Shown: piece by piece, positions 801-20,313 of the stretch
Position numbering within the stretch: position 1 is the first letter of the stretch
Layout of the letters: each line of letters starts with the position of its first letter
DNA from: a virus
Lineage: Duplodnaviria > Caudoviricetes
Reading direction: 5' to 3' (one strand)
Virus record (IMG/VR): IMGVR_UViG_3300028840_002358
Span: 1-54,657 of that record
Length of the DNA: 54,657 nucleotides
Program-made: the position numbers and the translations under genes
The notes under the pieces: generated by a model
Told to the model about the DNA's origin: nothing
Database searches by the model: none
What the model saw: only the letters and a program-made list of their open reading frames with translations

Positions 801-831
801 AGAAAAAAGCCACACCCTCAGAGTGTGGCTT
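801..831 (-). terminator. Intrinsic terminator-like hairpin directly upstream of the portal gene
   Basis: Minus strand AAGCCACAC-TCTGAGG-GTGTGGCTT followed by TTTTCTTT. Confidence 0.6.
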
Positions 832-4200: not shown

Positions 4201-5448
4201 TCATTGCGTCACCCGTCGCGGCGAGAGGCCCATACCGGCAAGGCGTTCGAGGGTGACAGAGACATATTTCGGTTCGATGTCACAAGCTCGTCCAATGCGC
4301 TGCATCTGCTCACAGGCAGCTAGCGTGCTACCCGACCCAACAAATCCATCGAATACTACATCGCCTGGGCAACTGCTATATTCCATTGCCCGCCTCGGCA
4401 ATTCTATCGGCTTCTGTGTCGGATGCTTGTAATCAGATGCGGCATCGCGCCCTATCTGCCACAAGGTCGTAAGACTTCTGTCTCCGCAAAAGTAATGTTC
4501 GCCATGTTTCCAGCCATACAACAGCGGTTCATGCTGCGCACGATAGTCTTGCCACCCCATCGACGCGGCTGGTTTGGCCCAAATAATTGTACAACTGAAT
4601 TTCCAGCCAGCGTCACCAAAAGCCAATTCAAACGCCGGACGTGTGCCACGCGGACGGTCCGCGTGGCACACGTAAACCACGCAACCATCCGCCATCGCTT
4701 TATCCCAAGCCTTAAACGCGCAAGCCAGGAATGCCCGCAGCTCAACAGGATCAAGATCGTCGTTTTCGATGACTTGATGTGTCGTACTCTGGCCTCGGCC
4801 AGAGTACGACACGCCATAAGGCGGGTCAGTCCATACCAGCCCCGCCCTCTCCCCACCCATCAACCGCCCCACATCCGCCTCACTTGTCGAATCCCCGCAC
4901 ATCACCCGATGCGACTTGCCCGGTACACTGGCGCTTGGTATCTCCCACACATCGCCCCTGACAACGCCCCACTTCTCTTGCAACTCTTGCGCCTTGTCCA
5001 CCTGCCCGCCGGGATCCTCTGCCGGTTCGTCCTCCCCCCAATCAAGCTGTAACTCGCCCTCGTCAAAACCCCAATCGAGCAGGTCGCCTACCTCAAACGA
5101 GTTTGCCAGTTCCTCCCAGTCCCATTGGCCCATCGTGCCCCGGTGCAGGAACACGACCAGCTTTTGCCGTTCCTTCTCGGTCAGCGGGCGGGACGCCACA
5201 CGGACGTCCACCTCGTAATCCGGGCCATACCGCGCCGACGCTGCCCACACATAGCGGCGCTGATGGCCGTCGTATATCTCGTTATCCGGTCCAATCGCGA
5301 TGGTCTGAATCTGCCCGAACGTGTCGAGCGATTCAATCAGCCGCGCACCCTCACGCTCGTGAATCTCACGCGGGTTATGGTCCCACGGTACAAGGTCCGA
5401 GAGTTTGCGCCGCTCATTTGTCCAAGCGATCGCGCCGTTCTCACTCAC
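4201..5448 (-). CDS. ParB-like domain fused to N6-adenine/N4-cytosine DNA methyltransferase
   Basis: NPR...GHQR ParB/Srx motif; CGDS, TDPPY, HPTQKP, DGFVGSGST MTase motifs. Confidence 0.9.
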   Translation of the reverse strand: MSENGAIAWTNERRKLSDLVPWDHNPREIHEREGARLIESLDTFGQIQTIAIGPDNEIYDGHQRRYVWAASARYGPDYEVDVRVASRPLTEKERQKLVVFLHRGTMGQWDWEELANSFEVGDLLDWGFDEGELQLDWGEDEPAEDPGGQVDKAQELQEKWGVVRGDVWEIPSASVPGKSHRVMCGDSTSEADVGRLMGGERAGLVWTDPPYGVSYSGRGQSTTHQVIENDDLDPVELRAFLACAFKAWDKAMADGCVVYVCHADRPRGTRPAFELAFGDAGWKFSCTIIWAKPAASMGWQDYRAQHEPLLYGWKHGEHYFCGDRSLTTLWQIGRDAASDYKHPTQKPIELPRRAMEYSSCPGDVVFDGFVGSGSTLAACEQMQRIGRACDIEPKYVSVTLERLAGMGLSPRRVTQ

Positions 5449-5867
5449 ATCCCGCCCCCTGGATTGCCCCCGACCGCTTGGGGGGGAGAGCGATCAGGAG
5501 CATTCCGAGAAGCGCGATGTGCTGCGCTAATGTTGTACATCTCGACAAACGCGCTCAAGTCCTCCACCGGCCACAGATGCTCAGGCACATCCAAGCCGAT
5601 AGATGGACACGAACCGTCCGCTTGCCTCACACAGTAGGACGCAAAAGGCCCGGCGTCATAGGCGCGGGCCATCAGGGTAGAGCCATCGGGAAAGCGAAGA
5701 TAGAGCAAATCGCCACATTGCACCCGACCATCTTGGTAGTGCTCGATAGGTAGGGCGAGCCAGGGGGAATAGGCAGTGTCGTAGTAGCGGGGAGCATCAG
5801 GGGTAGAGCAATACAGCGGTTGCCCAATGCGACCTGCGTAGACTGTGGCGAGAACCAAAGAGAGCAT
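5445..5867 (-). CDS. RlpA/3D-like double-psi beta-barrel protein, candidate cell-wall lytic enzyme
   Basis: ATVYAG...LALP...CGD..LRF.DG...ARAYDAGP...GLDV pattern resembles DPBB lytic transglycosylase-like domains. Confidence 0.5.
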   Translation of the reverse strand: MLSLVLATVYAGRIGQPLYCSTPDAPRYYDTAYSPWLALPIEHYQDGRVQCGDLLYLRFPDGSTLMARAYDAGPFASYCVRQADGSCPSIGLDVPEHLWPVEDLSAFVEMYNISAAHRASRNAPDRSPPQAVGGNPGGGM

Positions 5868-5879
5868 TCAAATTCCCAC

Positions 5880-5940
5880 GGGGGCGAGGCCCACCCTCGC
5901 CCCCTCGACAAGGAGAACATACGGGGCGACACAACCCCGT
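5880..5940 (-). ncRNA. Candidate anti-Shine-Dalgarno small RNA / late-leader RNA
   Basis: Begins 7 nt after a perfect -10; 6-bp hairpin, single-stranded AUGUUCUCCUUGUCGA, then perfect 10-bp GC hairpin; the linker is complementary to the GACAAGGAGAACA RBS motif of early genes. Confidence 0.6.
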
Positions 5941-5946
5941 GTCCCC

Positions 5947-5975
5947 ATTATAACCGATGGTACACCAGTTGTCAA
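5947..5975 (-). promoter_or_regulatory. Perfect sigma70-type promoter driving the leftward (late/structural) arm
   Basis: TTGACA-17 nt-TATAAT on the minus strand. Confidence 0.85.
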
Positions 5976-6028
5976 TAGCCCCGCGTTATGTCTAGGTATA
6001 CGGATGGTAACAAAAGGGCTAGAAATAC

Positions 6029-6058
6029 TTGACAGGCCCGCTCGATTTGTGGTATACT
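6029..6058 (+). promoter_or_regulatory. sigma70-type early promoter, divergent from the one at 5947-5975
   Basis: TTGACA-18 nt-TATACT with TG extended -10. Confidence 0.8.
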
Positions 6059-6105
6059 GTATCCAGATTGGACATGGACGCAGGGGGTGGCAAGGAGATA
6101 GGCGA

Positions 6106-6336
6106 ATGGACATCAGGACAAAGAGAATCCGAGACGCACAACCAGGCGAGATCGTAGCAGTTCCACTTGGCGGCATCAAGCCTACCGCAATCAAGATCGA
6201 ATCGCTTTTCTGCGTCATCGACCCCCCGCAACGATGCGCACAAGGTGAAGTCGTCGTGGCATTGGGCTATAGTACGTGCTCGGGTGTATCATTTGAGGCT
6301 GGCCGAATCGTCAGCGTCAACCTTGGTGCTCCATAA
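6106..6336 (+). CDS. Hypothetical protein (first early gene)
   Basis: ATG 6106 preceded by CAAGGAGA; frame of ORF 5845..6336. Confidence 0.6.
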   Translation: MDIRTKRIRDAQPGEIVAVPLGGIKPTAIKIESLFCVIDPPQRCAQGEVVVALGYSTCSGVSFEAGRIVSVNLGAP

Positions 6337-6428
6337 GCCCCGCCGGGCGGGGCAAGGCCCGGCACAAGGAGGCACGCAATGCTAGGCAGTCTCGTAATGG
6401 AGACGCCGGACACCGTAACCGGCAACAC

Positions 6429-6488
6429 CGGGCGCTGCCACACGGCGGCATTGGATGATAGCCCAAGGGTTCGATCCCCAAGCGCCCG
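6429..6488 (+). ncRNA. tRNA-like mini cloverleaf (non-canonical, ~60 nt)
   Basis: CGGGCGCT/AGCGCCCG closing stem, TGCC/GGCA and TTGG/CCAA arms, GGG-TTCGATC-CCC T-loop. Confidence 0.4.
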
Positions 6489-6587
6489 CATCAACGGGGG
6501 TAACTGGCTGCGCTGTTCGTGACACCCGACAAGCGCGATCCGCACGGCAGCGCGGCCTCATTTGACCGACAAGGAGAACAGACGACG

Positions 6588-6878
6588 ATGAACGCACAAG
6601 AGGCACTCGCCCAAATGGGCATCACCCAGGCGCGTACACCAGCGCCCGCCTTCCCCTATGCCGCGTATGATCTAGCATCTCGGACACAGGTCATCGCCAC
6701 AGCGCACGAAGATGCGCTGTGGGCGCGATTGGCCGACGGCACGCGGGCGCTGATCGCAGACCTGACCACCCTGCCCGAGTTGGCAATCCCCGACTGGATG
6801 CGCAAGGCGTTGCGACAGGCCGCCGATCTGCGCGACCTGCACGAGACGCAAGCGGATGCGGTTGGGGGGGCGCTGTGA
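6588..6878 (+). CDS. Hypothetical protein
   Basis: ATG 6588 after CGACAAGGAGAACA. Confidence 0.7.
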   Translation: MNAQEALAQMGITQARTPAPAFPYAAYDLASRTQVIATAHEDALWARLADGTRALIADLTTLPELAIPDWMRKALRQAADLRDLHETQADAVGGAL

Positions 6879-7042
6879 ACGAGGCGATCTACTGCGAGTT
6901 GTGCGGCCACGAGATCAAGGGCGACGACTATCGCGTCGTCGAGATTGACGGGCGCTTGACCACCATCTGCGGCGACTGCTACGCCGAGCCGCTCGAACCG
7001 CCTGAGTGGGCGCATACGCCAAGGAGCGCGAGCTATGCCTAA
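6875..7042 (+). CDS. Small zinc-finger protein
   Basis: GTG start overlapping the upstream stop; CELC...CGDC. Confidence 0.6.
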   Translation: MNEAIYCELCGHEIKGDDYRVVEIDGRLTTICGDCYAEPLEPPEWAHTPRSASYA

Positions 7043-7289
7043 GCGATGGCTCCCCTGTCAGTACCGCGCAATCCGAGCCGGTACGCCTATCTGCTTGCAC
7101 ATCTCCAAGGACGGTGGCGAGATGACCGTCTCAGTCGATGATTGTTGGGGCTGTCTATTTCGCGCCTACACGCCGTCAGGGCAACGGGCAGCAGAGCACT
7201 ACAGAAGCGAAAAAGGAAAAGCCATCTCGCCCCCCGAACGCGCCTGGCTCGACTCGCTGGGCATTCAACCGAGGCGCAGACGTGGTTAG
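7035..7289 (+). CDS. Cys-rich hypothetical protein
   Basis: Coupled ORF; CQY..C...CWGC. Confidence 0.5.
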   Translation: MPKRWLPCQYRAIRAGTPICLHISKDGGEMTVSVDDCWGCLFRAYTPSGQRAAEHYRSEKGKAISPPERAWLDSLGIQPRRRRG

Positions 7290-7575
7290 GCGACCGCGCT
7301 ACCCGCATCCCGACGCCAATCAGGCCGAGATCGTCCAGGCGCTCCGGGCGTGCGGGTTCCTGGTCCTGGACGTGAGTAGCACGCTCCCCACGCCTGACAT
7401 TCTCGTGTGGGGCTATGACCTCGACTCGCAGTCCGGTTTCTGGACCGCCTGGGAGATCAAGACGCCAGCGGGAAAACTCACGAGATCACAACGAATGTTT
7501 GCCGAGCTATGGCCCGGCGCTGTGCAGATCGCACGATGCGCCGGGGATGTATTAGCCGCCTACGGGCGGAATTGA
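7282..7575 (+). CDS. VRR-NUC / PD-(D/E)xK nuclease (Holliday-junction resolvase-like)
   Basis: DANQAEIVQALR..G...PDILV...EIKT..GKLT.SQ..F. Confidence 0.8.
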   Translation: MVRRPRYPHPDANQAEIVQALRACGFLVLDVSSTLPTPDILVWGYDLDSQSGFWTAWEIKTPAGKLTRSQRMFAELWPGAVQIARCAGDVLAAYGRN

Positions 7576-7588
7576 CAAGGAGAACGAA

Positions 7589-7783
7589 ATGACCAAGTTT
7601 CTACAGATGGACGAACAAGGGATCAACATCAATCACATCGTCTATATTCGGCATTATGTGGTTGGCGAGTCTGATCGTGTCGAAATCGAACTCGCCAACG
7701 GTCGCCAGCTTCTCTATACCAACGCCGAAGCACGGCGCTTTATGCACTGGTGGCGAGAACACGCTGAGGTATATGCCGCGTGA
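7589..7783 (+). CDS. Hypothetical protein
   Basis: GACAAGGAGAAC RBS; ININHIVYI. Confidence 0.65.
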   Translation: MTKFLQMDEQGININHIVYIRHYVVGESDRVEIELANGRQLLYTNAEARRFMHWWREHAEVYAA

Positions 7784-8010
7784 CAGTATCCCTCAGCAAG
7801 CTCAAGTCCCGCGCCAATGCACTCATTGGCCGGGAACTTACCTGGCACGACGCGCCGCACGGCTGGCATTCGCTGGCCTACGACGGCGACGACGTGATCA
7901 GCCTGGACCCGTTCAAGTTGCCGCACATCGCGCGGGTGAACGGGCGGACGATACCGCTGGATGTGCCCGAAAGGGAACCGGAAGCGGTACAAATGGAGCT
8001 TGAGTTCTGA
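7780..8010 (+). CDS. Hypothetical protein
   Basis: GTGA overlap with the upstream gene. Confidence 0.5.
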   Translation: MTVSLSKLKSRANALIGRELTWHDAPHGWHSLAYDGDDVISLDPFKLPHIARVNGRTIPLDVPEREPEAVQMELEF

Positions 8011-8028
8011 GGATGTGGAGACTGATAA

Positions 8029-9339
8029 GTGAGATTTGGTAGCTTGTTCAGCGGCATCGGGGGATTTGATCGGGGCCTGGAATTGGCGGGGATGAAATGC
8101 GCGTGGCAGGTCGAGATTGACGACAAGTGCCGCGACGTACTGACCCGCCATTGGCCCGATACGCCCAAATACGAGGATGTGCGAAATGTCGGACGACGAA
8201 ACCTTGAGCCAGTGCCAGTTGACCTTATTTGCGGTGGATTCCCCTGTCAGGATCTATCGGTTGCCGGACAGCGCGCGGGATTGGCTGGAGAGCGATCAGG
8301 ACTTTGGTTCGAGTTCCATCGAATTCTTGCAGAGCTTAGGCCGCGATGGGTTGTCATCGAGAACGTCCCCGGCTTGCTATCCTCACGAGGTGGGGCAGAC
8401 TTTGCCGTCCTCCTTCGAGGGTTGGTCAAACTCGGGTATGGCGTCGCCTGGAGGATACTTGACGCTCAATACTTTGGAGTGGCCCAGCGCCGCCGCCGTG
8501 TGTTCATTGTCGGCAGTCTTGGAGACGGATGTGCCGCGCAAGTATTATTTGAGTCCGAGAGCAGCGCGTGGGATTCTCCGCCGAGCAGAGAAGCGGGGCA
8601 AGGAACTGCCCGAGATGTTGCACCGTGCCTTGCTACGAGTGGCAGGGGGACAGAGCGAACTGGGGAAAGCAGAGGGCAAGGTGCGATGATCGCCGTGCCG
8701 TTGGGCGCACACCATTGTCCCCGGTACGATCTGGACAATGAGATATACGTCGCCTTTGACGCACGCGGCAATGGGGACGGGCAAACAGCAAGCGCCGTCA
8801 CGGGCGACCACGAACGGAGAATCACAGATTATACTACCGTCGCCTTCCAGCTCCGCTACTACACCCGAGACAACAAGCCTGGTGGACAGCCAAGCGACAC
8901 AGCAGACATTACAAACTGCCACAAAGCCGGCGATAGCGCACCTCACGTAATGGCCTTCCAGCCCCGCTACACACGCAACGGTCGCGGGGCACCGGGCACA
9001 ATAGCCGCCCCATTGACAGCAGAGGCCGGACGAACGGGCAGGGGCGACAGTGCGCAGTGTGTGGTGTTTGATTATTGCGCGCAAGGTTCAGAGCGAACGC
9101 GAGTTGTCCGCTCTGGCGAATATGCGCAGATGATCGCAGGGCGTCCCGACGCCATCGCCCATACCTGGGGCATCCGTCGTCTTACGCCGACCGAGTGTGA
9201 GCGCCTCCAGGGATTCGACGATGGTTGGACTGTCGGTCAATCGGACAGCGCACGTTACAGGCAGCTTGGGAATGCCGTATGCGTGCCGGTTGCGGAATGG
9301 CTAGGACAACGAATAGGAGAATTTAGGAGAATTGAATGA
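8029..9339 (+). CDS. C5-cytosine DNA methyltransferase with long, modular variable region
   Basis: SLFSGIGG (I), GGFPCQD (IV), ENVPG (VI), QRRRRVF (VIII), RRLTPTECERLQGF (IX), YRQLGNAV (X). Confidence 0.95.
   Translation: MRFGSLFSGIGGFDRGLELAGMKCAWQVEIDDKCRDVLTRHWPDTPKYEDVRNVGRRNLEPVPVDLICGGFPCQDLSVAGQRAGLAGERSGLWFEFHRILAELRPRWVVIENVPGLLSSRGGADFAVLLRGLVKLGYGVAWRILDAQYFGVAQRRRRVFIVGSLGDGCAAQVLFESESSAWDSPPSREAGQGTARDVAPCLATSGRGTERTGESRGQGAMIAVPLGAHHCPRYDLDNEIYVAFDARGNGDGQTASAVTGDHERRITDYTTVAFQLRYYTRDNKPGGQPSDTADITNCHKAGDSAPHVMAFQPRYTRNGRGAPGTIAAPLTAEAGRTGRGDSAQCVVFDYCAQGSERTRVVRSGEYAQMIAGRPDAIAHTWGIRRLTPTECERLQGFDDGWTVGQSDSARYRQLGNAVCVPVAEWLGQRIGEFRRIE
8186..8689 (+). CDS. Overprinted alternative-frame ORF inside the C5 MTase (M.EcoHK31I beta-like arrangement)
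   Basis: 167-codon open +1 frame with GAGG SD upstream; protein-like C-terminus LSAVLETDVPRKYYLSPRAARGILRRAEKRGKELP. Confidence 0.55.
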   Translation: MSDDETLSQCQLTLFAVDSPVRIYRLPDSARDWLESDQDFGSSSIEFLQSLGRDGLSSRTSPACYPHEVGQTLPSSFEGWSNSGMASPGGYLTLNTLEWPSAAAVCSLSAVLETDVPRKYYLSPRAARGILRRAEKRGKELPEMLHRALLRVAGGQSELGKAEGKVR

Positions 9340-9692
9340 ACAACCTCGACGACTTGATCCGCACATACGCAGGACGGCGATCCGCCGTCTGGATCGCTGC
9401 CCAGGGCAATGTCTCAGCACGGACAGTCCGCCGCCGGGCCAAGGCGCTGGGCATCAGCGTCGTCCAGTGCGTCTATGCCAAGCCGGACAAGCAGACCTAC
9501 CACGTCAGACCGCCGGCAGAGAAGCGCGCTGAGTTTGCGAAGATGCTCAATGACCTGATGGACGAGCTGGAATTGCGCTCACAGAACGCCGCACTCTGCG
9601 CCGCAGTAGAGCAAGCTCACGAGTGGCTTGGTGGCGGCTGGTTGCAAAGTCCAGGGGGCTGTGCGACTCACGAGCTCGAGGCCGCGCCCTAG
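9336..9692 (+). CDS. Hypothetical HTH-like protein
   Basis: ATGA overlap; WIAAQGNVSARTVRRRAKALGI. Confidence 0.6.
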   Translation: MNNLDDLIRTYAGRRSAVWIAAQGNVSARTVRRRAKALGISVVQCVYAKPDKQTYHVRPPAEKRAEFAKMLNDLMDELELRSQNAALCAAVEQAHEWLGGGWLQSPGGCATHELEAAP

Positions 9693-9705
9693 TCAGGCCA
9701 GGGCA

Positions 9706-9834
9706 ATGTCTGCCCTTACGATCCTACTCATCATCGGCGCTATCGTCGTGCTCGCCTGCACGCTCATTTGCTACTGCGCGTGTGTAGTCGGCGGGTGGGC
9801 CGATGACGCGCAAGAAACAAGGAGAATGAAATGA
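9706..9834 (+). CDS. Small single-TM protein
   Basis: MSALTILLIIGAIVVLACTLICYCACVVGG. Confidence 0.5.
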   Translation: MSALTILLIIGAIVVLACTLICYCACVVGGWADDAQETRRMK

Positions 9835-10637
9835 CAAAAATTGAGTGGACACACAGACCTGGAACCGTTGGCGTTACCTGGAATCCCGTGACTGGCTGTA
9901 CCAAAATCAGTGAGGGCTGTGCGCACTGCTACGCCGAGCGGATGTCGAAACGGCTTGCGGGGCGGTTCGGGTATCCCGCCGATGATCCGTTTCGGGTGAC
10001 ATTGCATCCAGACAAGCTCGAATTGCCGCGCAAGTGGAAAAAGCCGCGCACGGTTTTTGTGTGCTCGATGGGCGACCTTTTCCACAGAGACGTACCTTAC
10101 GACGAGATCGCATTCGTCTTTCACGAAATGGCGCGATCCCCGCAGCATACGTATTTGGTGCTCACCAAGCGTCCCGACGAGATGCTGGCTTTTTGGAAGC
10201 GGTATCGGTACGACACAGGCATAGAGCTGGAACCGCCGCCGAGCTATATCTGGTTTGGCGTCACTTGCGAGAATCAGCAGCGCGCCAATGAACGTATCCC
10301 GTTGCTGTTGCAGTGTCCGGCGGCGGTGCGGTTTGTGAGTGTGGAGCCGATGCTTGGGCCAGTGGACATCAGCATTGCCGAGATTGAATTCAGCGGGGGG
10401 CATCCAGATGATCCAGCCAGTTATGAGTATTCGGCCAATGTGCTCGATTGGGTCATCGTCGGCGGCGAAACCGGCCCAGGCGCTAGGCCGATGCATCCAG
10501 GCTGGGCGCGTGACATCAGGGACCAATGCCAAGCGGCGGGTGTACCCTACTTTTTCAAGCAGATGTCACGCAAGGCCCCCATTCCCGACGACTTGATGAT
10601 CAGAGAATGGCCCAATGCAACCCGGCGACCGGATTAA
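9831..10637 (+). CDS. Phage Gp37/Gp68 (DUF5131) radical-SAM-like protein
   Basis: TKIEWT, TWNPVTGCTKISEGCAHCYAE, FVCSMGDLFH, LTKRP, FVSVEPML, WVIVGGETGP, FFKQ. Confidence 0.92.
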   Translation: MTKIEWTHRPGTVGVTWNPVTGCTKISEGCAHCYAERMSKRLAGRFGYPADDPFRVTLHPDKLELPRKWKKPRTVFVCSMGDLFHRDVPYDEIAFVFHEMARSPQHTYLVLTKRPDEMLAFWKRYRYDTGIELEPPPSYIWFGVTCENQQRANERIPLLLQCPAAVRFVSVEPMLGPVDISIAEIEFSGGHPDDPASYEYSANVLDWVIVGGETGPGARPMHPGWARDIRDQCQAAGVPYFFKQMSRKAPIPDDLMIREWPNATRRPD

Positions 10638-10801
10638 GCACCGCAAGAGCCGACGCGCGACCTGGACCGTCTGCGCCGTCAATCACGATGGCACAATCGA
10701 GGCCCGTCGCTGGATGCGCGACCGGCGCAAGTGGCGGTTCAAACGCCTGACCAGGCCAGAGGAGTATAGGCTAGTCGAGGCGCATTGACAAGGAGATTTC
10801 T

Positions 10802-11035
10802 ATGCCAACCGGATTACATCCCGACACACTGACAAAATTCATCACCGGCCTGACCATCTCGTCTATCGCGCTGTATGTCGATCCAGAAAGCGCTCACCTG
10901 TTCCTGAGCAACGGGGTGAGCCACGTCGGCATTCTCACATTCACGACCACGGATGAAGGGTTGAACATTGACCTGCTGGCCAATGCGCCGCACTCGCACC
11001 GGGACGAGTTTGATCCCTATCGAGAGCGTGGCTAA
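10802..11035 (+). CDS. Hypothetical protein
   Basis: GACAAGGAGA RBS. Confidence 0.6.
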   Translation: MPTGLHPDTLTKFITGLTISSIALYVDPESAHLFLSNGVSHVGILTFTTTDEGLNIDLLANAPHSHRDEFDPYRERG

Positions 11036-11043
11036 ATTTCCTC

Positions 11044-11072
11044 TTGACAACGCCGCCAAGATCGGTTATACT
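11044..11072 (+). promoter_or_regulatory. sigma70-type promoter of the replication module
   Basis: TTGACA-17 nt-TATACT. Confidence 0.8.
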
Positions 11073-11076
11073 GGAT

Positions 11077-11260
11077 TTGACGCCTGAGAGCGTCAACTGA
11101 GCGGACTGGCAACCCGCTTAGAGCCGAAGATCGAAAAGAATAGGCTCGGACTTGGGGATACGTGTCCTCCTGGTTTTTGACTAGGTGGCTCGGGAGCCAT
11201 CTCATATGCCAATGAGATTTAACCCAAGTCACCGGGCCGCCTAGTCAAAGCCCAGGAGGA
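11077..11260 (+). ncRNA. Highly structured 5' leader RNA that sequesters the RBS of the GIY-YIG gene
   Basis: Three short hairpins, then a ~29-bp stem (11165-11193 with 11232-11260) with G-U pairs covering AGGAGG. Confidence 0.55.
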
Positions 11261-11267
11261 TGTTTCG

Positions 11268-11612
11268 TTGGGAAATAGATACCGCGCACACAAGGGCAAT
11301 CATCAAATCAAACCCAGCGGCAAGATTGGCACGGTCTACCTGCTCCACTTCACAGAAAAGTACCACCACTGCCGACACTACATCGGTTTCACCGAGCGTC
11401 CCCTTGAGACCAGACTTGGCGAGCATTGGGCGGGCAACGGTTCGGCCCTCACGCACGCGGTACACGAACAGACCGGCAATGAGATGATCCTGGCCCGCGT
11501 TTGGGAGAACGTTGATCAGTCCATCGAGATGATTCTCAAGAGCCGCGCCGAATCCCCCAAGCTCTGCCCCATTTGTAACCCTCAAGCCACCCAGTACGCA
11601 CAATACGATTAG
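11268..11612 (+). CDS. Small GIY-YIG nuclease
   Basis: GTVYLLHF...HYIGFT...RLGEH..G.G..LT. Confidence 0.8.
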   Translation: MGNRYRAHKGNHQIKPSGKIGTVYLLHFTEKYHHCRHYIGFTERPLETRLGEHWAGNGSALTHAVHEQTGNEMILARVWENVDQSIEMILKSRAESPKLCPICNPQATQYAQYD

Positions 11613-11621
11613 GAGCCCCCA

Positions 11622-12626
11622 ATGGAAACACCAGTAGAGTACAGCACACCACAAACGCCCAAACCGCTTATCCTCGCTATTCTCGGAGATCGCCCTATCG
11701 CCTATCATCCCGTCCTTGCCAAAGCGCTGGGGGGCGTCAAGCAAGCGATCTTTGTCAGTCAATTGCTTTACTGGACAGACAAAGGCGTGCGGCCCGATGG
11801 CTTTATCTGGAAAACCCAAGAGGAATGGTACGACGAAACCGGACTATCCCCCGCCGAGCAGCGCACCGCCCGAAAACATCTTGTCAAGGCGGGCATTCTC
11901 CAAGAAAAGCTGATGAGCATTCCGGCCCGATTGTACTACCGCCTCGACACCGACACACTCCTAACAAGACTGCAAGAGTATCACCAACAAGATGTGAAGG
12001 ATCTTCACAACAAGGACTGCACGACCTCGCCAGCTATTCCAGAGATTACCTCAGAGACTACTCCAGAGACTACAGAGCAAGAGGGCGCTACCGCGCCGCC
12101 CGCCCCCGCCGATGTTGATCTCGCACGACCTCCAAGAACCGGAGCCCTGCCGGACGATGATCGTCTCTTTTATGGAGAGGATGAACCGACAGACAACCCG
12201 GCACAGGAATATCTCAAGCAGGCGCGTGATAGAATAGGTGCTGATCTGTTTTCGGTAACGGCTCATTGCCAAGAGAGACAAGAGGTTGAGGGGCAATGGA
12301 CTGTGCCCGAGCATAGGGGATTGTCCCCTCAATGCGCAGTCTACAAAGAGGCAACCGGTTACAGCCCTGTCAAAGCCGTCAGGGCAGACATTGACGCGGC
12401 GATCCCTGACAATCCGGAGGCCCTAGAAAACTGGTACAAAGTCGCCCACGGCTGGGTGCTGACCGGTTACAGCTATAAGAACGTAGCCGGTATGTTGGAC
12501 TGGTATGCAGAGGGTCGTGTGGGGCGCGACAAGCCGCTTGAGAAGCGCAACGGTGGATCATCGACGTCGCGCGCTGCTGATGTTCACATTGCCCACGATA
12601 CTGTGACGTTTGGAGTTACATCATGA
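11622..12626 (+). CDS. Phage replication initiator (winged-helix, lambda O-like role)
   Basis: RPIAY...AIFVSQLLYW...WKTQEEWYDETGLS..EQRTARK.L...G; upstream of helicase. Confidence 0.85.
   Translation: METPVEYSTPQTPKPLILAILGDRPIAYHPVLAKALGGVKQAIFVSQLLYWTDKGVRPDGFIWKTQEEWYDETGLSPAEQRTARKHLVKAGILQEKLMSIPARLYYRLDTDTLLTRLQEYHQQDVKDLHNKDCTTSPAIPEITSETTPETTEQEGATAPPAPADVDLARPPRTGALPDDDRLFYGEDEPTDNPAQEYLKQARDRIGADLFSVTAHCQERQEVEGQWTVPEHRGLSPQCAVYKEATGYSPVKAVRADIDAAIPDNPEALENWYKVAHGWVLTGYSYKNVAGMLDWYAEGRVGRDKPLEKRNGGSSTSRAADVHIAHDTVTFGVTS
11963..12077 (+). repeat. Candidate replication origin: iteron-like repeats within the initiator gene
   Basis: AACAAG at 11963, 11986 and 12009 (23-bp period), palindrome TGTGAAG-GAT-CTTCACA, then CAGAGAYTAC x3 at 12-bp period. 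Confidence 0.4.
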
Positions 12627-13612
12627 CGACGGCTAAACCGAACACATTCGATCCGAAGATCTATCTACACAGCCCCGCCCAACTGGCACAGATGCACGTT
12701 GAGCAATACGAATGGCAGCTAAAGACTCCGGGCATCCAGTTCGATCTGCCCGTCCTGGATCACTACGTGCTGCCCCTCCGACCCGGAAAGCTGGCAATTA
12801 TCTGCGGTCGGCCTGGCAGCGGCAAGACCAGCCTGATGGCCCGACAGGCCAAGCGGACGGCATTAGACATCCAAGCGCGCGGCAAGCAGTTCGAGGAGTG
12901 TGTTGTGTACGTCTCCTGGGAAGAGCACGCCGAGGATCTTGAGGCTTACTTTGAGGCGGATAGCGAGTATACCGTCTCTGATTATGCCTGGGGCAAACTC
13001 TCACTTGATCAGGTCAAGCGCAAGGTGCACGGGCGCGCCAATTTACCGCTTTGGATCATCGGGCACAGTTCGAGAAACGTGAAGGCGCAAACACAACCGC
13101 TTACGCTGCCCATCGTATTCAAGGCCATCGAGCATCTGGCGCAAGGCTACGCCAGCGCCCCAAAACCGATCCTACTCTGTATGGATTATGCGCAGCTCAT
13201 ACCCTACGAACGCGGATACAAGAACCGATATGAGCAGGTCAAGGCCGCGATCAATGCAACCAAACAGCTTGCCCTGCGCGTGGGCTGTCCGGTCATCGTC
13301 GCCGCACAAGCAAGCCGGGACGTGGACGCCTACAGCACGCCGGTCCCGGCAATGAGCGACGCACAGGAGAGCAGCGGGATCGAGCAGGTCTGTGATGTGT
13401 TTTTTGGTATCTGGCGTCCCTGGAAAACCCACCGCGACCGGCCTACTGTGACCATTGCAGGTCATGAAGTAGCCAACAGTCCCGAACTTTTCGTCTTGCG
13501 GATGAACAAACAGCGCAAGGCCGACGGTGAACGGACGTTCATTCTCCACTTTGATATGGCCGAGTTAAAACTTGCCGAGATGGAATTGCAGAGGCAAGAT
13601 ATGGAGTTTTAG
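12623..13612 (+). CDS. dnaB: DnaB-like replicative helicase (C-terminal ATPase domain)
   Basis: GRPGSGKT, DYAQL, AQASR, SSGIEQVCD, KQR. Confidence 0.88.
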   Translation: MTTAKPNTFDPKIYLHSPAQLAQMHVEQYEWQLKTPGIQFDLPVLDHYVLPLRPGKLAIICGRPGSGKTSLMARQAKRTALDIQARGKQFEECVVYVSWEEHAEDLEAYFEADSEYTVSDYAWGKLSLDQVKRKVHGRANLPLWIIGHSSRNVKAQTQPLTLPIVFKAIEHLAQGYASAPKPILLCMDYAQLIPYERGYKNRYEQVKAAINATKQLALRVGCPVIVAAQASRDVDAYSTPVPAMSDAQESSGIEQVCDVFFGIWRPWKTHRDRPTVTIAGHEVANSPELFVLRMNKQRKADGERTFILHFDMAELKLAEMELQRQDMEF

Positions 13613-13613
13613 G

Positions 13614-14534
13614 ATGGATATAGAGCACGCAATGAGGCTGGCCGAACAACGCTGGCCGGGAATCGAGATCACGCGCAAGAGCGCACACGAAGCCAGCGCC
13701 CCTTGCCCGCTCTGCCGGCGGGCGACTGAGGATGGGTTTCTGATTTTCTCCGATCCGCCCCGCTACTGGTGCAGGCAATGCAACGCCTCCGGCTTTCTGG
13801 AGAACAAGGATCCACACCACAAGCTGACCGAGGCTGAACTAACCGAGATTCGCCTGCGGCGTCTGGAGCGCAAGCAAGAGGAACTAGAGCAGCGCGTGTC
13901 GGCCATTGAGCGGCTGAACCGATCACGCATTCACGAGCGGTATCACGCCAACCTGGATGAAGCCGCCTACGGGTGGTGGATGGCAAAAGGCGTCGAGCCC
14001 TGGGCCATTCTGGACTACAAACTAGGTTACTGCCCCCGCTGCCCGACCGACCGCGCCCACAGGCCAAGCTACACGATCCCGATCTTTGACGCCGACAAGC
14101 GGCGATTGCTCAATCTGCGCCACCGACTGGCCGACGCGCCAAACGGCGACAAGTACCGGCCTGAAATGGCAGGATTAGGGACGTGTCTTGCTTTTCCGCA
14201 CCACCTGATCGACGCGGACTATGGTATCATCGTCGAGGGATCGATCAAGGCAATCTGCTGTCATCAATACGGATTTCCTACGGTCGGCGTATTCGGTAAG
14301 CGCGGAAAGTTCAAGGGCGAATGGCTCAACCTGTTCCCGATCGGCGCGCCGATCTACATCGGCCTCGATCCCGACGCGCAAGAAAGCGCCGACCGACTGG
14401 CCTATGGCATTGCCAAGACGGGCAAGCAGACCTATGTCATCGATTGGCCTGAGAAACCCGATGATCTTCTGGTGAATGGCGCGACAGCAGAGGAATGGCT
14501 TTCATACGTCCACCTAGCAAGGAGAATCCATTGA
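13614..14534 (+). CDS. DNA primase (Zn finger + TOPRIM)
   Basis: CPLC...CRQC; IVEG, LDPD, KPDD. Confidence 0.85.
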   Translation: MDIEHAMRLAEQRWPGIEITRKSAHEASAPCPLCRRATEDGFLIFSDPPRYWCRQCNASGFLENKDPHHKLTEAELTEIRLRRLERKQEELEQRVSAIERLNRSRIHERYHANLDEAAYGWWMAKGVEPWAILDYKLGYCPRCPTDRAHRPSYTIPIFDADKRRLLNLRHRLADAPNGDKYRPEMAGLGTCLAFPHHLIDADYGIIVEGSIKAICCHQYGFPTVGVFGKRGKFKGEWLNLFPIGAPIYIGLDPDAQESADRLAYGIAKTGKQTYVIDWPEKPDDLLVNGATAEEWLSYVHLARRIH

Positions 14535-14698
14535 CACGCACTGGACCCAAGATGCCGAGCAAAAAGACGTGGCGCGTTTATCGCCGCTGGAAAGACTGGC
14601 CCTCTACTCCCAAGGCAGACTACACGCTGGATGTGCGCAGAGCCCGGCGGCGGGCGCGGAGAGAGGGTCGGTCGGCAAGGAGCGGGGTAAAGTGGTGA
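14531..14698 (+). CDS. Small basic hypothetical protein
   Basis: TTG start after CAAGGAGAA. Confidence 0.4.
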   Translation: MTRTGPKMPSKKTWRVYRRWKDWPSTPKADYTLDVRRARRRARREGRSARSGVKW

Positions 14699-14994
14699 AC
14701 CTCTCCGAGCTTTTGCACCAGGCCGAACACAACGGCGCGGCTGGCTGGTCCTGGTGCTTCGTGACGCCTGAGCAGGCGCGCGAATTGATCACAGCGCTGA
14801 ACAGTTCTCGCGCGAATGAGCGATCTCTTGTGATCGATCTGAACGCTGCGCTGGGCAAGCTGGAGCGCATCGGAGAACTGGCGCACGCCGCACGGTTGGC
14901 GTGGATCGACAACGACCGGAGAGAGATGCAGCGGCTGATCGAGGAGATCGAGGGATTGGCTGGAGATTCTGCTAATGTGGATACGGAGAACTAA
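14692..14994 (+). CDS. Hypothetical coiled-coil protein
   Basis: Frame of ORF 14569..14994; coupled to the downstream gene. Confidence 0.5.
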   Translation: MVNLSELLHQAEHNGAAGWSWCFVTPEQARELITALNSSRANERSLVIDLNAALGKLERIGELAHAARLAWIDNDRREMQRLIEEIEGLAGDSANVDTEN

Positions 14995-15860
14995 TGAGGT
15001 GGTCTAAAACGTTTCTGGAATGGAAAAACGGTTACACTGCTTTTCTATCGGTTGTATTCACCTGGGATCTGCCAGTGGCCTATCAGCGCGCCGTTTGGTT
15101 GCGCTGCCAGGGCTACACCGTCAAAGCGGGTGGGCCTGCTGTGGCGCTAATGCCTGATTATCTCTCAGATGTGGCAGAGTGCAATGGCGAATCAGTACAG
15201 GCGCTAGAGAGGCACAATCCAGACGCAACGTTCACGAGCCGGGGGTGTATTCGGCACTGTCCATTCTGTGCTGTTCCGAGGATAGAGGGTCAGTTGAGAG
15301 AATTGGAAGACTGGACACCTGCTCCAATTATATGTGACAACAATCTGCTGGCGTGCAGTCGGGCGCACTTTGATCGGGTTATAGACCGGCTCAAACCGTT
15401 GTTGGGAATCGACTTCAATCAGGGACTTGACGCCCGATTGCTGACCGACTATCACGCTGGTCGGTTGGCAGAGTTGGACTGTATGGTGCGTTTGGCGTTT
15501 GACTCGATAGGCTACGAAAGTAGCTTTATGACTGCGTTTGAGCGACTGCGACGCGCAGGCTTTCCACTGAATCGGATTAGGGTATATGTTCTGATCGGTT
15601 TTCGAGACACGCCAGAGGAGGCATTGTATCGGTTACGCACTGTGGCAGATTTGGGGATTGATCCGAATCCGATGCGCTATCAAGCACTTGACTCGCTCAA
15701 GCGCAATAGCTATGTTGGTCCAAACTGGACACACTCAGAGTTGTCGCGTTATATGCGGTATTGGTCAAATTTGCGTTACATGCGTGCCGTCCCATTCGAG
15801 GAGTGGGACGGATTGAAACATCGTAAGTCGTCAGAGGCGCAGCCGCCTCCGCTAAGTTGA
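14994..15860 (+). CDS. Radical SAM protein
   Basis: VKAGGPAV, FTSRGCIRHCPFCAVP (CxxxCxxC), DNNLLA, DFNQGLDARL, YVLIGF. Confidence 0.88.
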   Translation: MRWSKTFLEWKNGYTAFLSVVFTWDLPVAYQRAVWLRCQGYTVKAGGPAVALMPDYLSDVAECNGESVQALERHNPDATFTSRGCIRHCPFCAVPRIEGQLRELEDWTPAPIICDNNLLACSRAHFDRVIDRLKPLLGIDFNQGLDARLLTDYHAGRLAELDCMVRLAFDSIGYESSFMTAFERLRRAGFPLNRIRVYVLIGFRDTPEEALYRLRTVADLGIDPNPMRYQALDSLKRNSYVGPNWTHSELSRYMRYWSNLRYMRAVPFEEWDGLKHRKSSEAQPPPLS

Positions 15861-16058
15861 CTACTCGCACCCTCTCCGGTTCCTACACCGCTCCCGACGG
15901 CTGGGTAATGCGCTGGGCGACACAATGCCCCGACTGCCCGAACCGCCGGGACTGTCGCCACGATTGCGGGCATCCTGGGGACGTGCAATACATCACGGCT
16001 GATGGTCAACAACCATAAGTGCTGGACAGACATTTAGCGTTTTTCTTAGATTTGCCTC

Positions 16059-16087
16059 TTGACAACAGCGGCAAAATTTGGTATACT
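16059..16087 (+). promoter_or_regulatory. sigma70-type promoter
   Basis: TTGACA-17 nt-TATACT with TG extension. Confidence 0.8.
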
Positions 16088-16142
16088 GTGTCTGACGATG
16101 ACAGACACGTACATACATACTCACTTACATTAAGGAGGGGCT

Positions 16143-16361
16143 ATGGACGAACCACTGAGCGAACGGATCAACGTCCGATTGACGCGGACACTCAGGGACG
16201 ATATGGAAAAGCAGAGCCGAAAGACTGGTGTTCGTATCTCGGACGTAACCCGCCGTCTATGGATGTTGTGGAGTCGTCACGGCCTCGATCCGTTCGCTCA
16301 GCCTTTGGCACAAACCGACACGGGGGACAAGGAGAACAGACATGATGCAAAACCTGATTGA
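16143..16361 (+). CDS. Ribbon-helix-helix (Arc/CopG-like) transcription regulator
   Basis: ERINVRLTRTLRDDMEKQSRKTGVRISDVTR; TAAGGAGG RBS; first gene after a promoter. Confidence 0.7.
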   Translation: MDEPLSERINVRLTRTLRDDMEKQSRKTGVRISDVTRRLWMLWSRHGLDPFAQPLAQTDTGDKENRHDAKPD

Positions 16362-16830
16362 GAAACTGGCACGCGCCCGTCAGATCGAAATGCAGTATGA
16401 CGACGAATTGGAGGCCCTTGAATCGGCGATCGAGGCCCTGATCAAAGAACGCTACGATTCTGAATTGCGGCGTGTTCGATTGCTCCGAGAAACGGCCAAG
16501 GCCGATGTAGCCGACGTCGAGGGCGCGATCCGCGCCGCCGCCCTGGACGCATTCAGCGCGACCGGCGACAAGCGCCCCCACCCCGCCGTGGGGATCCGCG
16601 AGATGACGCGGCTTGAGTATGACGAGGGCGAGGCGATCTTTTTCTGCCGACGGGCCGCGCCCAACGCGCTCAAACTGGATAGGCGCGCATTCGAGAAGAT
16701 CGCCAAGCTGGGTATAGAGGCGGGCGGCCCTTTCGATCTCGATTTTGTGACCATCCGCAAAGAGCCGCAAGCGGCGATCGCCCGCGATTTGAGCGCCTAT
16801 ATGGGGGACAAGGAGAACAAGGGTGAGTGA
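16342..16830 (+). CDS. Gam/Gp157-like coiled-coil protein of the recombination module
   Basis: Long coiled coil then V.IR....LEYD...A...LKLD.RAF; precedes the SSAP-like gene. Confidence 0.5.
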   Translation: MMQNLIEKLARARQIEMQYDDELEALESAIEALIKERYDSELRRVRLLRETAKADVADVEGAIRAAALDAFSATGDKRPHPAVGIREMTRLEYDEGEAIFFCRRAAPNALKLDRRAFEKIAKLGIEAGGPFDLDFVTIRKEPQAAIARDLSAYMGDKENKGE

Positions 16831-18034
16831 TACAGCATTGACCGTGAGACAACAGGCGCTTATGCCTGTAATGGAGTTGGAGCAGGCCGTGAGCCGACAC
16901 AACTACCTCGTGCAGCTCGCCGGATCGGTGATGGTCGAGGGTCTGCACTTTGGCACTATCCCCGGCACAGCAAAGCCGACGCTCTACAAGCCGGGTGCCG
17001 AGATGTTAACGACCGTTTTCGGCCTGACGCCCCGCTTTGAGACGATCAAGGAGGTCGAGCAGTGGGAAGGGCTCGAACCGTTCTTCTATTACTGGATGCG
17101 TTGCCGACTTTATCACAGAGATCAGCTTGTAGGCGAGGCCGATGGCTCGTGCAATAGCCGCGAGGCCCGCTATCGCTGGCGATGGGTGAACGAGGACGAT
17201 GTATCCGCCGCTCTGGACAAGACCAAGCTCCAAAAGCGCGGTGGTCGCATCTCAGAGTTCTCGTTTGCCGTGGACAAGGCAGAGACGACCGGCAAATACG
17301 GCAAGCCGGAAGAGTACTGGCAACGGTTTAGAGATGCCATTGAGGCAGGCACAGCCGCCAAAGTTCGCAAGCCGACGGCCAAGGGCGCAGTTTATGACGC
17401 CTGGGAGATTGACAGTACCGTCTACCGCGTACCCAACGAGGACATTTACAGCCAGGTCAACACGATCCTCAAGATGGCAGAGAAGCGGGCGCTTGTCGCC
17501 GCCGTGCTGGTCACAGTGAATGCGAGCGAGTTCTTCACGCAGGATATGGAGGACTTGATCGACGTGCCTGCGAACGTAACGGTGATCAACCAGCCGGCGC
17601 AGCGCAAAACGCCGATGGATGCTAAGCAGGCAACCGATGATCTTTTCGATGGCTACCAGGATCAGAACTACAGCCCCCCGCCAGAGGATGACATTGACGC
17701 CGCCGCCGAACTGGCCGAGGCCAAGCGAGAGGCTGAGGACTTGAATACCAGCAGGCCAGGAACATACATCATCAGTCCCGACGTAAAGCTGATCGAGCTT
17801 GACTATATGCCTGACTGGTTGGACACGGACAAGTCGCGCCAGTGGGGGCGGCTGTTTTTTGAGGCCCGACAGCACCTCGGCTACAAGAACGACTATCACG
17901 CCGAGGGTGCGCTGAAAAGCGTCTTGGGCGATGACTATCAGGAACAGGCATACGCCGCCGCCTGGGCCGTCCTGGTGGATCACGTGAGGGCAAAGGTGGG
18001 CAGCAAACCGACCGCTGATTCTGAGGCCGACTAG
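16823..18034 (+). CDS. Putative single-strand annealing / recombination protein
   Basis: HFGTIPGT.KPTLYKPGAEML...GSCNSRE...NTILKMAEKRALVAA...FTQD, then an acidic tail. Confidence 0.55.
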   Translation: MSDTALTVRQQALMPVMELEQAVSRHNYLVQLAGSVMVEGLHFGTIPGTAKPTLYKPGAEMLTTVFGLTPRFETIKEVEQWEGLEPFFYYWMRCRLYHRDQLVGEADGSCNSREARYRWRWVNEDDVSAALDKTKLQKRGGRISEFSFAVDKAETTGKYGKPEEYWQRFRDAIEAGTAAKVRKPTAKGAVYDAWEIDSTVYRVPNEDIYSQVNTILKMAEKRALVAAVLVTVNASEFFTQDMEDLIDVPANVTVINQPAQRKTPMDAKQATDDLFDGYQDQNYSPPPEDDIDAAAELAEAKREAEDLNTSRPGTYIISPDVKLIELDYMPDWLDTDKSRQWGRLFFEARQHLGYKNDYHAEGALKSVLGDDYQEQAYAAAWAVLVDHVRAKVGSKPTADSEAD

Positions 18035-18084
18035 ACACACATCCTGCCCGGCTGAAAGGTCGGGCAGGGTAGCAAGGAGAACCG

Positions 18085-18804
18085 TTGAAACTCTTTTGGA
18101 ACCGCCTTTTGCAAGCGTCGCTATGGCTAGCATCGATTGGCCTTATGATCGCATCATCCGGCCTCGACGGCGCGTACCTCGCCAAGCTGATGCCAACCGG
18201 CTTCGCTTGGCTAGGACTGCTGCTCAACACAATGACCGACCTGACCAGCGAGCTAGGGATGTACTGGTACGGTCGATTGCAGATGGATCGATCCTCGACC
18301 AAGCAAAAGCGCGCCCGCTGGCTATTGGTCGGCCAGATTGTCCTTGTCGGGTACGCCTGGCTGTTCTCTTGGCGGCAGCTTGTGCCAATCATTGCCAAGG
18401 TGGATCCTGGCGCGTGGTGGATGGCGCCCATTGGTGCGGCATTCATCCCATCGGCGCTAATCGTTGTCGGGTATACGCAAGCCCTGCTCGCCGGACGCGT
18501 CGAGGATGTCAAGGCGACCGCCAAGGTCGCGCCAGTGGATGCCAAGTTGGCGTCAGAAGCGCCAACCGAACCGCCAACCGTGACAGCCGAACCGCCAATG
18601 ACGCCAACCATTGACAAGCCAGTGCCAAGCCTGGACACAGAGGCACGCAGGGAGCGGGTATTGGCCGCTATGTTGGCAGACGAACCGCCCACCCAGGCCG
18701 AACTGGCGGACAGGTTGGCCGTCAGTCGGTCAACCATTGGCAACGATGTGGCGCGGCTGCGCCAAGCTGGCCGATTGAATGGACAAGGGGGAACACATCA
18801 ATGA
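18085..18804 (+). CDS. Multi-TM membrane protein with C-terminal HTH (DUF2637/Spd-like)
   Basis: Four hydrophobic segments, Pro/Thr linker, PTQAELADRLAVSRSTIGNDV. Confidence 0.7.
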   Translation: MKLFWNRLLQASLWLASIGLMIASSGLDGAYLAKLMPTGFAWLGLLLNTMTDLTSELGMYWYGRLQMDRSSTKQKRARWLLVGQIVLVGYAWLFSWRQLVPIIAKVDPGAWWMAPIGAAFIPSALIVVGYTQALLAGRVEDVKATAKVAPVDAKLASEAPTEPPTVTAEPPMTPTIDKPVPSLDTEARRERVLAAMLADEPPTQAELADRLAVSRSTIGNDVARLRQAGRLNGQGGTHQ

Positions 18805-19109
18805 CACAACTGATCCTGGCCCTGGCCTGCCTCTTTATTGCAGGCGTCATCTACAACGAGTTTCTCGCCAGGTCGAAAGTGCAGACTGTCAAGATCGCAG
18901 GCAACGGCTCACGGGCGTGTGAACTCGCTGAGGGCATTATCAATGTCCTGGTCGAGCAAGTCGAACAGCGGCGCGGCCCCATCATCGGTGCAGTGGGAGA
19001 GGACGGCAAGACGATCACGCTTCACACGTTCATTGAGGCGGTGGACGGCCGGCGGCTGATTCTGCGCGACAGGTTGACGCCGGGCACGCTGGTCACGGTA
19101 ATTAGGTAG
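18801..19109 (+). CDS. Membrane-anchored hypothetical protein
   Basis: N-terminal TM; ATGA overlap. Confidence 0.6.
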   Translation: MTQLILALACLFIAGVIYNEFLARSKVQTVKIAGNGSRACELAEGIINVLVEQVEQRRGPIIGAVGEDGKTITLHTFIEAVDGRRLILRDRLTPGTLVTVIR

Positions 19110-19118
19110 GAGGGTAGA

Positions 19119-20171: not shown

Positions 20172-20313
20172 CCCGCTAACTTCACGACCATCCCCCGCTT
20201 TGGCCGCTAAAATCACGGTAGAACGACGAAAAGTCAATTTTTCAGCGGCAAAAACTGGTATGATCATTCTGTGTCATACCGCGACATAGGTATCTGAGTG
20301 GGGAACCACTTGC

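Follow-up and report, generated by a model that had tools for sequence, protein, structure and literature searches.

The region 5880-5975 of the viral contig IMGVR_UViG_3300028840_002358 raises the question of whether a phage could silence a whole class of its own genes with a short stretch of RNA complementary to their ribosome-binding sites. The window analysed here (54,657 bases) is the entire record, and its ends overlap identically over 144 bp (1-144 and 54514-54657), so that it represents a circularly closed phage contig. A preliminary description of this region had proposed that a minus-strand RNA starting here is antisense to an extended ribosome-binding site shared by the early genes, and that it acts either as a discrete RNA of 60-75 nt with an immunity or dormancy role or, as a bracketed alternative, as the leader of the late transcripts. 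According to our analysis, the region 5880-5975 reads as a sigma-70-type promoter followed by a leader of ~73 nt at the 5' end of the late operon (packaging, head and tail genes), and this leader carries an exact antisense copy of a motif that precedes many early start codons. A trans-acting shut-off of the early genes by the late leader is the single most likely mechanism, which we put forward tentatively and with somewhat less than even confidence.

The leader of the late operon

The gene list is based on open reading frames (ORFs) and comprises 86 of them, all of which were scanned against PHROGs and 39 of which were scanned against Pfam. The genes form two arms that diverge at 5975/6029, and the labels late (minus arm) and early (plus arm) were assigned from gene content alone. 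The minus-strand arm extends from 5867 through the contig junction to 25758 (~34 kb) and encodes packaging and structural functions, namely a 140-aa protein, a ParB-methyltransferase, a small-terminase-like protein, the large terminase (TerL), the portal, a protease, the major capsid protein, sugar-modifying enzymes, head-tail connectors and tail proteins. The plus-strand arm (6106-25570) encodes small uncharacterised proteins, DNA methyltransferases, an O-like initiator, a DnaB-like helicase, a primase and similar functions, and most of its proteins have no family assignment. No integrase, repressor, CI-like or other lysogeny gene was found in these scans, in line with the earlier statement that no CI-like gene lies between the divergent promoters and at odds with the immunity or dormancy role then envisaged. 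The sole helix-turn-helix protein of the Pfam scan is encoded at 18085-18804.

Promoters were searched over the whole window as TTGACA-16/18-TATAAT with a cut-off of at least 11 of 12 positions. Five sites were found, against a mean of 0.17 in 60 first-order Markov simulations, one on the minus strand (5975) and four on the plus strand (6029, 11044, 16059 and 20314), each at the head of a gene block. The minus-strand site (5947-5975) matches at 12 of 12 positions, with TTGACA (5975-5970), a spacer of 17 nt and TATAAT (5952-5947), and is followed by GGGGACA up to position 5940, where the spacing alone would place the transcription start (A5940). It is best interpreted as the late-arm promoter, since in L007/L008 and L082, the closest relatives, the homologue of the 140-aa gene is likewise immediately preceded by a near-consensus promoter. 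The first early promoter (6029-6058, plus strand; TTGACA-18-TATACT with TG) diverges from it. A direct repeat, ACCGATGGTA / ACGGATGGTA, was also observed at 5953-5962 and 6000-6009 (plus strand), with its two copies, the only exact ones in the window, 47 nt apart; the first copy is within the late-promoter spacer and the second between the divergent promoters, and the repeat could be a protein site.

The leader extends over 73 nt from the start at about 5940 to the AUG at 5867. It is composed, on the minus strand, of (i) a stem-loop at the 5' end (hairpin 1, 5921-5940; ACGGGGU / GCCCCGU), which is present in the minimum-energy and the centroid folds, (ii) a linker, AUGUUCUCCUUGUCGA (5905-5920), which is the exact reverse complement of the early motif, the plus-strand copy of which occupies 5907-5919, (iii) a second hairpin (hairpin 2, 5880-5904) with a perfect 10-bp G+C stem and a 5-nt loop, and (iv) a spacer, GUGGGAAUUUGA (5868-5879), which contains the weak ribosome site of the first late gene. 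This gene (5445-5867, minus strand), whose start is backed by an alignment to the L008 homologue, encodes the 140-aa protein and begins 12 nt past hairpin 2. The promoter and the order of hairpin, unpaired antisense linker and 10-bp hairpin are thus as the preliminary description gave them. In the late transcript the linker seed (the 5907 copy) would lie at about +22 to +34, and the predicted cost of opening the linker is 1.5 kcal/mol in the leader and 0.7 kcal/mol in a 64-nt form, in the predicted fold of which the seed is fully open.

The proposal of a discrete RNA fared less well. Indeed, hairpin 2 is followed by GUGGGAAUUUGA and not by a U-tract, and it is not among the terminator-like sites of a scan that does list the site at 831-807. 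As the late gene, moreover, begins 12 nt further on, the RNA is taken to be the 5' leader of the ~34-kb late operon, the alternative formerly placed in brackets, and not a demonstrable discrete small RNA. The first canonical terminator downstream of the late promoter lies 5.1 kb away (807-831, minus strand; an 11-bp stem plus a U-run), inside the late arm and just before the portal gene. It separates the terminase-side genes from the portal gene and no strong promoter follows it, so that the structural genes need read-through or antitermination. The portal gene itself crosses the contig junction (start at 789, stop at 53866).

No Rfam family matched the window at gathering scores, and a search of 5700-11400 gave nothing in 5860-5980 at E<=1. 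Two other ways of reading the locus were tried and rejected: a plus-strand gene after the 5907 copy, for which there is no canonical start (ATG, GTG or TTG), as formerly reported, and no upstream plus-strand promoter; and a peptide encoded within the leader and starting at the AUG at 5920, since this frame of 82 codons overlaps the 140-aa gene and has an atypical codon-position G+C. In contigs of four DNA runs covering 5300-8000, the pieces that cover the leader are identical or differ by one letter, and diverged fragments end short of the leader, so that these runs offer no informative variation there.

The 140-aa protein has no sequence match in Pfam, PHROG or PDB. Its Atlas features match RlpA-like double-psi beta-barrel proteins with a high score, and it is possibly, as a lead only, a protein of that type. 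In the relative G001 (reverse-complemented), the homologue of the gene (42312-42638) adjoins a tape-measure-like gene. The product may be a cell-wall-acting virion or lysis protein relocated to the head of the operon.

The early motif and its pairing with the leader

When both strands were counted, the exact 9-mer GACAAGGAG had ten plus-strand copies (5907 to 24077) and none on the minus strand, against 0.44 copies expected from base composition. With up to one mismatch there were 35 matches against 11.5 +/- 3.3 in 100 shuffles, none of which reached 35. All the exact copies but that at 5907 lie 5-11 nt before an ATG or GTG, and these nine, together with eight degenerate copies, precede an ATG, GTG or TTG at this distance. 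The consensus is (G)(A)CAAGGAGA(A/G)(C), an extended Shine-Dalgarno (SD) sequence (short form, GACAAGGAGAAC), in which GAC upstream and A(A/G)C downstream of the SD core are conserved. Confirming that the motif precedes no late gene, CAAGGAG is found within 25 nt upstream of 14 of the 36 plus-arm genes and of none of the 49 minus-strand genes. The shorter cores are also unevenly distributed: GGAG is upstream of 27 early genes (of 36) and 12 late ones (of 49), and GAGG of 10 and 19, respectively.

The positions listed in the preliminary description were all recovered on the plus strand. The best predicted target, CGACAAGGAGAACAGACG (6567-6587, with the exact copy at 6568), stands before the ATG (6588) of a 96-aa early gene. 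The other start-associated exact copies are at 7574-7588 (before ATG 7589), 10787-10801 (ATG 10802), 16326-16341 (ATG 16342), 16807-16822 (GTG 16823), 20382-20396 (ATG 20397, the first gene after the 20314 promoter), 20929-20945 (ATG 20946), 23861-23874 (ATG 23875) and 24069-24083 (ATG 24084). Degenerate copies include AGCAAGGAGAACC (18071-18084), which stands before TTG 18085 and immediately after a 13-bp hairpin, and copies before starts at 6089, 6363, 7018, 9816, 14516, 14674 and 18782; those at 6089, 6363, 9816, 14516 and 18071 are the shorter versions formerly noted.

The late arm has a start-associated motif of its own, AGGGGGTA, with nine exact copies against about two expected, all on the minus strand (5' ends at 1407, 1792, 2123, 33755, 36746, 39165, 40904, 47748 and 49047) and all 0-10 nt before an ATG, GTG or TTG. 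As the early motif is restricted to the early arm and AGGGGGTA to the late arm, the genome contains two arm-specific classes of ribosome sites. No antisense copy of AGGGGGTA was found in the early RNA.

The 13-mer GACAAGGAGAACA is expected 0.001 times by composition, and the leader copy of the motif is therefore not attributed to chance. The linker matches 6567-6580 exactly over 14 nt, and the copies at 16326 and 16807 over 13 nt. Among the 36 early start regions, 17 were predicted to form a duplex of -15 kcal/mol or lower with the linker, against 3 of the 48 late ones, so that the strong interaction with phage start regions expected in the preliminary description was borne out in the predictions. 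At the best target the duplex energy is -25.2 kcal/mol and the net energy after accessibility costs is -20.4 kcal/mol; the net energies are -20.7 kcal/mol at 7574, -19.2 at 16326, -18.1 at 16807 and -18.9 at 24069. Overall, the net energy is -18 kcal/mol or lower for five early start regions and -10 kcal/mol or lower for 16 of the 36. On these values, pairing of the linker in trans with early start regions is thermodynamically plausible.

In a predicted fold of the leader plus the gene start, part of the linker is base-paired to GGGAA..GAAU in the leader's own ribosome site. Sequestration in cis of the ribosome site of the first late gene was nevertheless rejected, since an equal or lower energy was obtained with 132 of 300 shuffled linkers and with 206 of 300 random genomic 16-mers. 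Genuine cis anti-SD elements, that is, those at 11170/11250 in the window and in the relative L009/G001, match their own SD closely, unlike the linker of the late leader. The former belongs to the ~190-nt non-coding leader that follows the 11044 promoter (11044-11290, plus strand) and contains a very stable long hairpin (z = -6.1), in which an upstream anti-SD, UCCUCCUGG, is predicted to pair with CCAGGAGGA, the SD of the gene at 11268. A terminator-like stem plus U-run (11154-11179) overlaps one arm of this hairpin, and the whole structure may be an attenuator or the source of an RNA of ~100 nt.

The similarity of the late leader to the rest of the genome ends at the borders of the motif: no flank is found in any early intergenic region and neither hairpin recurs. 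All 14 positions of the motif are kept while the similarity of the flanks is lost, which would not be expected of a neutral scar; this argument shifts the weight towards a function of the copy itself and does not amount to a demonstration.

The proposed mechanism would operate as follows. As late transcripts accumulate, the linker would become a motif-specific mimic of the 16S rRNA tail and would base-pair in trans with about 14-16 early genes at their start regions. This pairing would block binding of the 30S subunit at early starts, and double-stranded cleavage sites may also arise. Translation would then move over to the late class at the expense of the early one, or the arms would act as mutual antagonists. 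The active RNA would be the leader of the late mRNA or a processed piece of it, and neither a terminated small RNA nor an immunity repressor.

Relatives, genome context and comparable systems

In the closest relatives, L007/L008 and L082, TerL is 83% identical and the first late gene 51-53% identical. The leader of L008/L082 is short and is composed of a 5' hairpin followed by a ribosome site, with no linker; the leader of the window is ~42 nt longer. L008 has a few ACAAGGAG ribosome sites, and neither of its own two leaders contains an antisense copy. In L009 (= record G001; TerL 69% identical), a 27-nt inverted repeat with two mismatches is located at 9510-9615, just before the small-terminase gene; the start region (SD and AUG) of a 22-codon mini-ORF is predicted to be paired there with its complement, which makes this a cis anti-SD at the head of the packaging genes. 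CAAGGAG is found mostly inside genes in G001.

None of the sequences in the searched collections has both the early motif regulon and the leader. In brief, the TerL query gave 75 loci in viral contigs, among which only L007/L008 and L009 were near enough to read; the ParB-methylase query gave six loci, none including the upstream region; the query with a 403-aa early protein gave six distant loci; and the alignment of the first late gene gave two loci in metagenomes, with the same leader as L008. The exact 36-nt leader pattern had no match in viral contigs, and the motif-plus-ATG pattern had at least 117 single matches; among the matches listed only the contig G002 had two, with just three copies. 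In genome contigs, the TerL query gave seven metagenome-assembled genomes of Armatimonadota, Chloroflexota and candidate phyla at 50-56% identity, so that no host is proposed.

Several other features of these genomes were observed. In the closest relatives several consensus promoters lie 6-7 nt before an ATG (L008 5759-5800 and 7819-7854), which suggests leaderless mRNAs; none of the five strong promoters of the window is so placed. On the plus strand of the window, a PAPS-reductase/DUF3440 protein adjoins a ParB-like protein (21679-23543), a neighbourhood that we take to be reminiscent of the IbrA/IbrB pair. The window also contains at least three DNA methyltransferase genes (4201-5448, 8029-9339 and 24800-25570), a DUF5131 gene and a radical-SAM gene, and ARAGORN found nothing in a tRNA-like stretch near 6460.

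The nearest analogue of the early motif is the start-associated sequence (SAS) of Cluster K mycobacteriophages, which, in Pope et al. 2011, is a 13-bp sequence present in 11-19 copies, in the non-structural half only, 3-7 bp before starts (PMC3203893). Both are short and asymmetric, contain an SD core, are present in 10-20 copies a few nucleotides before starts, in one orientation and in the non-structural half, and both show conservation reaching past the SD core. The sequences differ (GACAAGGAGAAC in the window, GGGATAGGAGCCC in Cluster K), and the phages and hosts are unrelated. Because the window motif departs from GGGATAGGAGCCC by more than two mismatches, it is an analogue and not a member of the SAS family. 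The 17-bp inverted-repeat extension (ESAS) was not seen in the window, and the window phage has a second, late-only motif, which is a difference from the SAS phages. In each system a single copy breaks the pattern and runs antisense to the local transcription: in the window, where the arms diverge, it keeps the DNA orientation of the others, whereas in subcluster K1 it is flipped and lies within the gap of the apparent late transcription start. The reverse SAS was located in Adephagia at 58682-58694 (L099 3683-3695) and in Anaya at 59870-59882 (L098 11871-11883), and is predicted to lie in the 10-nt apical loop of a strong long hairpin (z = -6.6). In a published account, "late transcription appears to initiate" in the gap between genes 92 and 93 of Adephagia (PMC11373665), the site of the reverse SAS. 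By analogy, the K1 reverse SAS could be an independent parallel to the leader copy of the window, as a lead only. Papers from 2024-2025 still call the function of SAS ill-defined or in need of experimental verification.

A second likeness concerns the RegB endoribonuclease of T4, the strong sites of which are found in the translation initiation regions of early genes and have the consensus GGAGRAYARAA in common (PMC3014915; PMC1702504). In both phages an extended ribosome-site sequence would mark early genes for post-transcriptional shut-off, and in T4 most late messages escape (PMC3014915; PMC1702504). The copies at 6568 and 16326 read GGAGAACAGAC and match 10 of the 11 positions of this consensus, the other copies matching less. 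RegB is, however, a protein nuclease helped by S1, whereas the window element is an antisense RNA segment, and no RegB homologue was detected with PHROGs in the 86 ORFs or with Pfam in 39 of them.

P22 sar, lambda OOP and P4 CI are phage antisense RNAs that block a ribosome site. In bacteria, RsaE/RoxS and RNAIII have C-rich seeds that pair with the G-rich ribosome sites of many mRNAs. The latter resemble the window element in having a single accessible anti-SD seed with many mRNA targets, and differ from it in being regulators of cellular metabolism or virulence that have their own terminators and no viral early-to-late link. The c4 RNA of P1/P7 is likewise a phage RNA in which, according to a review, an exposed complementary stretch pairs around a ribosome-binding site and blocks translation (PMC12197685). 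These phage antisense RNAs have one or two targets and are mostly cis-encoded or immunity-linked, whereas the RNA of the window would have about 14-16 trans targets sharing a barcode and, unlike them, is an mRNA leader, with no Rfam match. Our literature searches, including the sections consulted of this 2025 review on phage small RNAs (PMC12197685), brought up no case in which the leader of a late mRNA silences an early regulon through pairing with a shared barcode.

Two further systems resemble the locus in part. The L5 stoperators are oriented 13-bp sites bound by a repressor; the sites of the window are also oriented, no repressor was found in the scans, and their fixed distance of 5-11 nt to starts argues for a translational rather than a DNA-level role. 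In lambda, where the 6S RNA is made from pR' and Q acts, and in HK022, which has the put RNA, a strong, constitutive-looking promoter heads the late genes and is followed at once by a structured RNA, with a terminator further down. The window, in contrast, lacks a terminator immediately downstream of the structure, and the scans revealed no Q-like protein. The put RNA has two adjacent stem-loops without a 16-nt seed, and the window has two stem-loops plus a downstream terminator. Neither pR'/Q nor put accounts for the complementarity to early start regions.

Candidate roles of the late leader and their significance

Several observations weigh against a shut-off of early genes by the late leader. 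A consensus promoter would produce the leader from the start of infection, which does not sit well with a late-acting switch unless some factor restrains the promoter, and a single seed per late transcript must serve at least 14 sites. The closest relatives L008/L082 have neither linker nor motif regulon, and thus neither support nor test covariation; G001 pairs its anti-SD before TerS in cis and also has no early motif regulon. As for the parallel with Cluster K, no reverse SAS was found in Unicorn, in Pixie or in TM4 (searched over its final 5.8 kb only), the reverse copies of Kratio and Aminay have two mismatches, which is the control level, and the one-mismatch copy of ZoeJ lies mid-genome. 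Lastly, the earlier claim that deviations from the motif keep G-U pairing is weakly supported, with 23 of 45 deviations at A/C positions keeping a wobble pair against one third expected (p = 0.01); transition bias alone could explain this enrichment.

The next most likely explanation, although a rather doubtful one in our view, is that the leader acts in cis only, as a 5'-end stabiliser, a processing site or a put-like read-through RNA, and that the antisense motif is a by-product of an inverted hairpin-motif cassette, devoid of any trans effect. The inverted insertion of such a cassette is a plausible origin of the leader copy, since the ~42 nt that the leader has in addition to that of L008/L082 correspond to hairpin 2 plus the motif, and since the plus arm has further instances (18071, 7574 and 9816) of a hairpin with the motif immediately after it. 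A 5' hairpin is also common to the relatives, and the canonical terminator before the portal gene, with no further promoter of at least 11/12, implies that read-through is needed. A neutral relic should, however, have drifted or retained flank homology, whereas the similarity to the early arm is limited to the 13-14 nt of the motif; the exact 14-nt match to early start regions is left unexplained, and pairing with the leader's own ribosome site is at chance level. An unlikely explanation is that the early motif is read by a protein, either a RegB-like endoribonuclease or translation factor that recognises the extended SD or a stoperator-like DNA-binding protein, in which case the 5907 copy would be a DNA site on the late promoter, or irrelevant. 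The split between GGAG in early genes and GAGG in late genes resembles that of T4, the position of the 5907 copy (about +22 to +34) is one where a bound protein could block the polymerase, and RegB with S1 cuts GGAG in early start regions of T4 (PMC3014915), at sites whose consensus GGAGAACAGAC matches at 10/11. Yet no RegB-like protein, repressor or other candidate factor was found in the scans, an RNA-binding protein would be blind to the late-leader copy, which is there on the opposite strand, and the fixed distance to starts speaks against the DNA version.

The two remaining explanations are both very improbable. A discrete small RNA of ~60-75 nt that ends at hairpin 2 and represses the whole early regulon in immunity or dormancy would fit the shape of the molecule, with its 5' stem-loop, single-stranded seed and strong 3' stem-loop, and the 64-nt form has an open seed. 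Against this stand the lack of a U-tract, the silence of the terminator scan and the proximity of the late gene, as well as the fact that neither a lysogeny gene in the scans nor an Rfam match was found. In the other explanation, the motif is the preferred strong ribosome site of the host and its antisense copy a compositional coincidence. Indeed, AAGGAG is a generic SD core, and L008 and G001 hold scattered ACAAGGAG or CAAGGAG. However, the late genes do not carry the motif and use AGGGGGTA or GAGG, the GAC and A(A/G)C flanks are unpaired with the usual 3' tail of bacterial 16S rRNA, which may not be that of the host, the copies of G001 are mostly intragenic, and an exact antisense match of 14 nt in a 73-nt leader is far beyond chance.

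The shut-off of early genes by the late leader can be extended to a broader conjecture, which we consider improbable as a whole but worth stating: the phage would have two translational classes defined by arm-specific barcodes, GACAAGGAGAAC for the early and AGGGGGTA for the late arm, the late leader would silence the whole early class without any protein, and the reverse SAS of K1 phages would be a convergent case. If true, this would provide the first function for SAS, described in 2011. Temporal control in phages is known to be exerted by proteins (repressors, sigma and anti-sigma factors, antiterminators, RegA/RegB) or by antisense RNAs with one target. If true, barcode-specific silencing of early genes by a late-mRNA leader would be a new and very economical control design. 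Even if the trans effect fails, the presence of two arm-specific classes of ribosome sites in one small genome would be a clear case in which to study selective translation.

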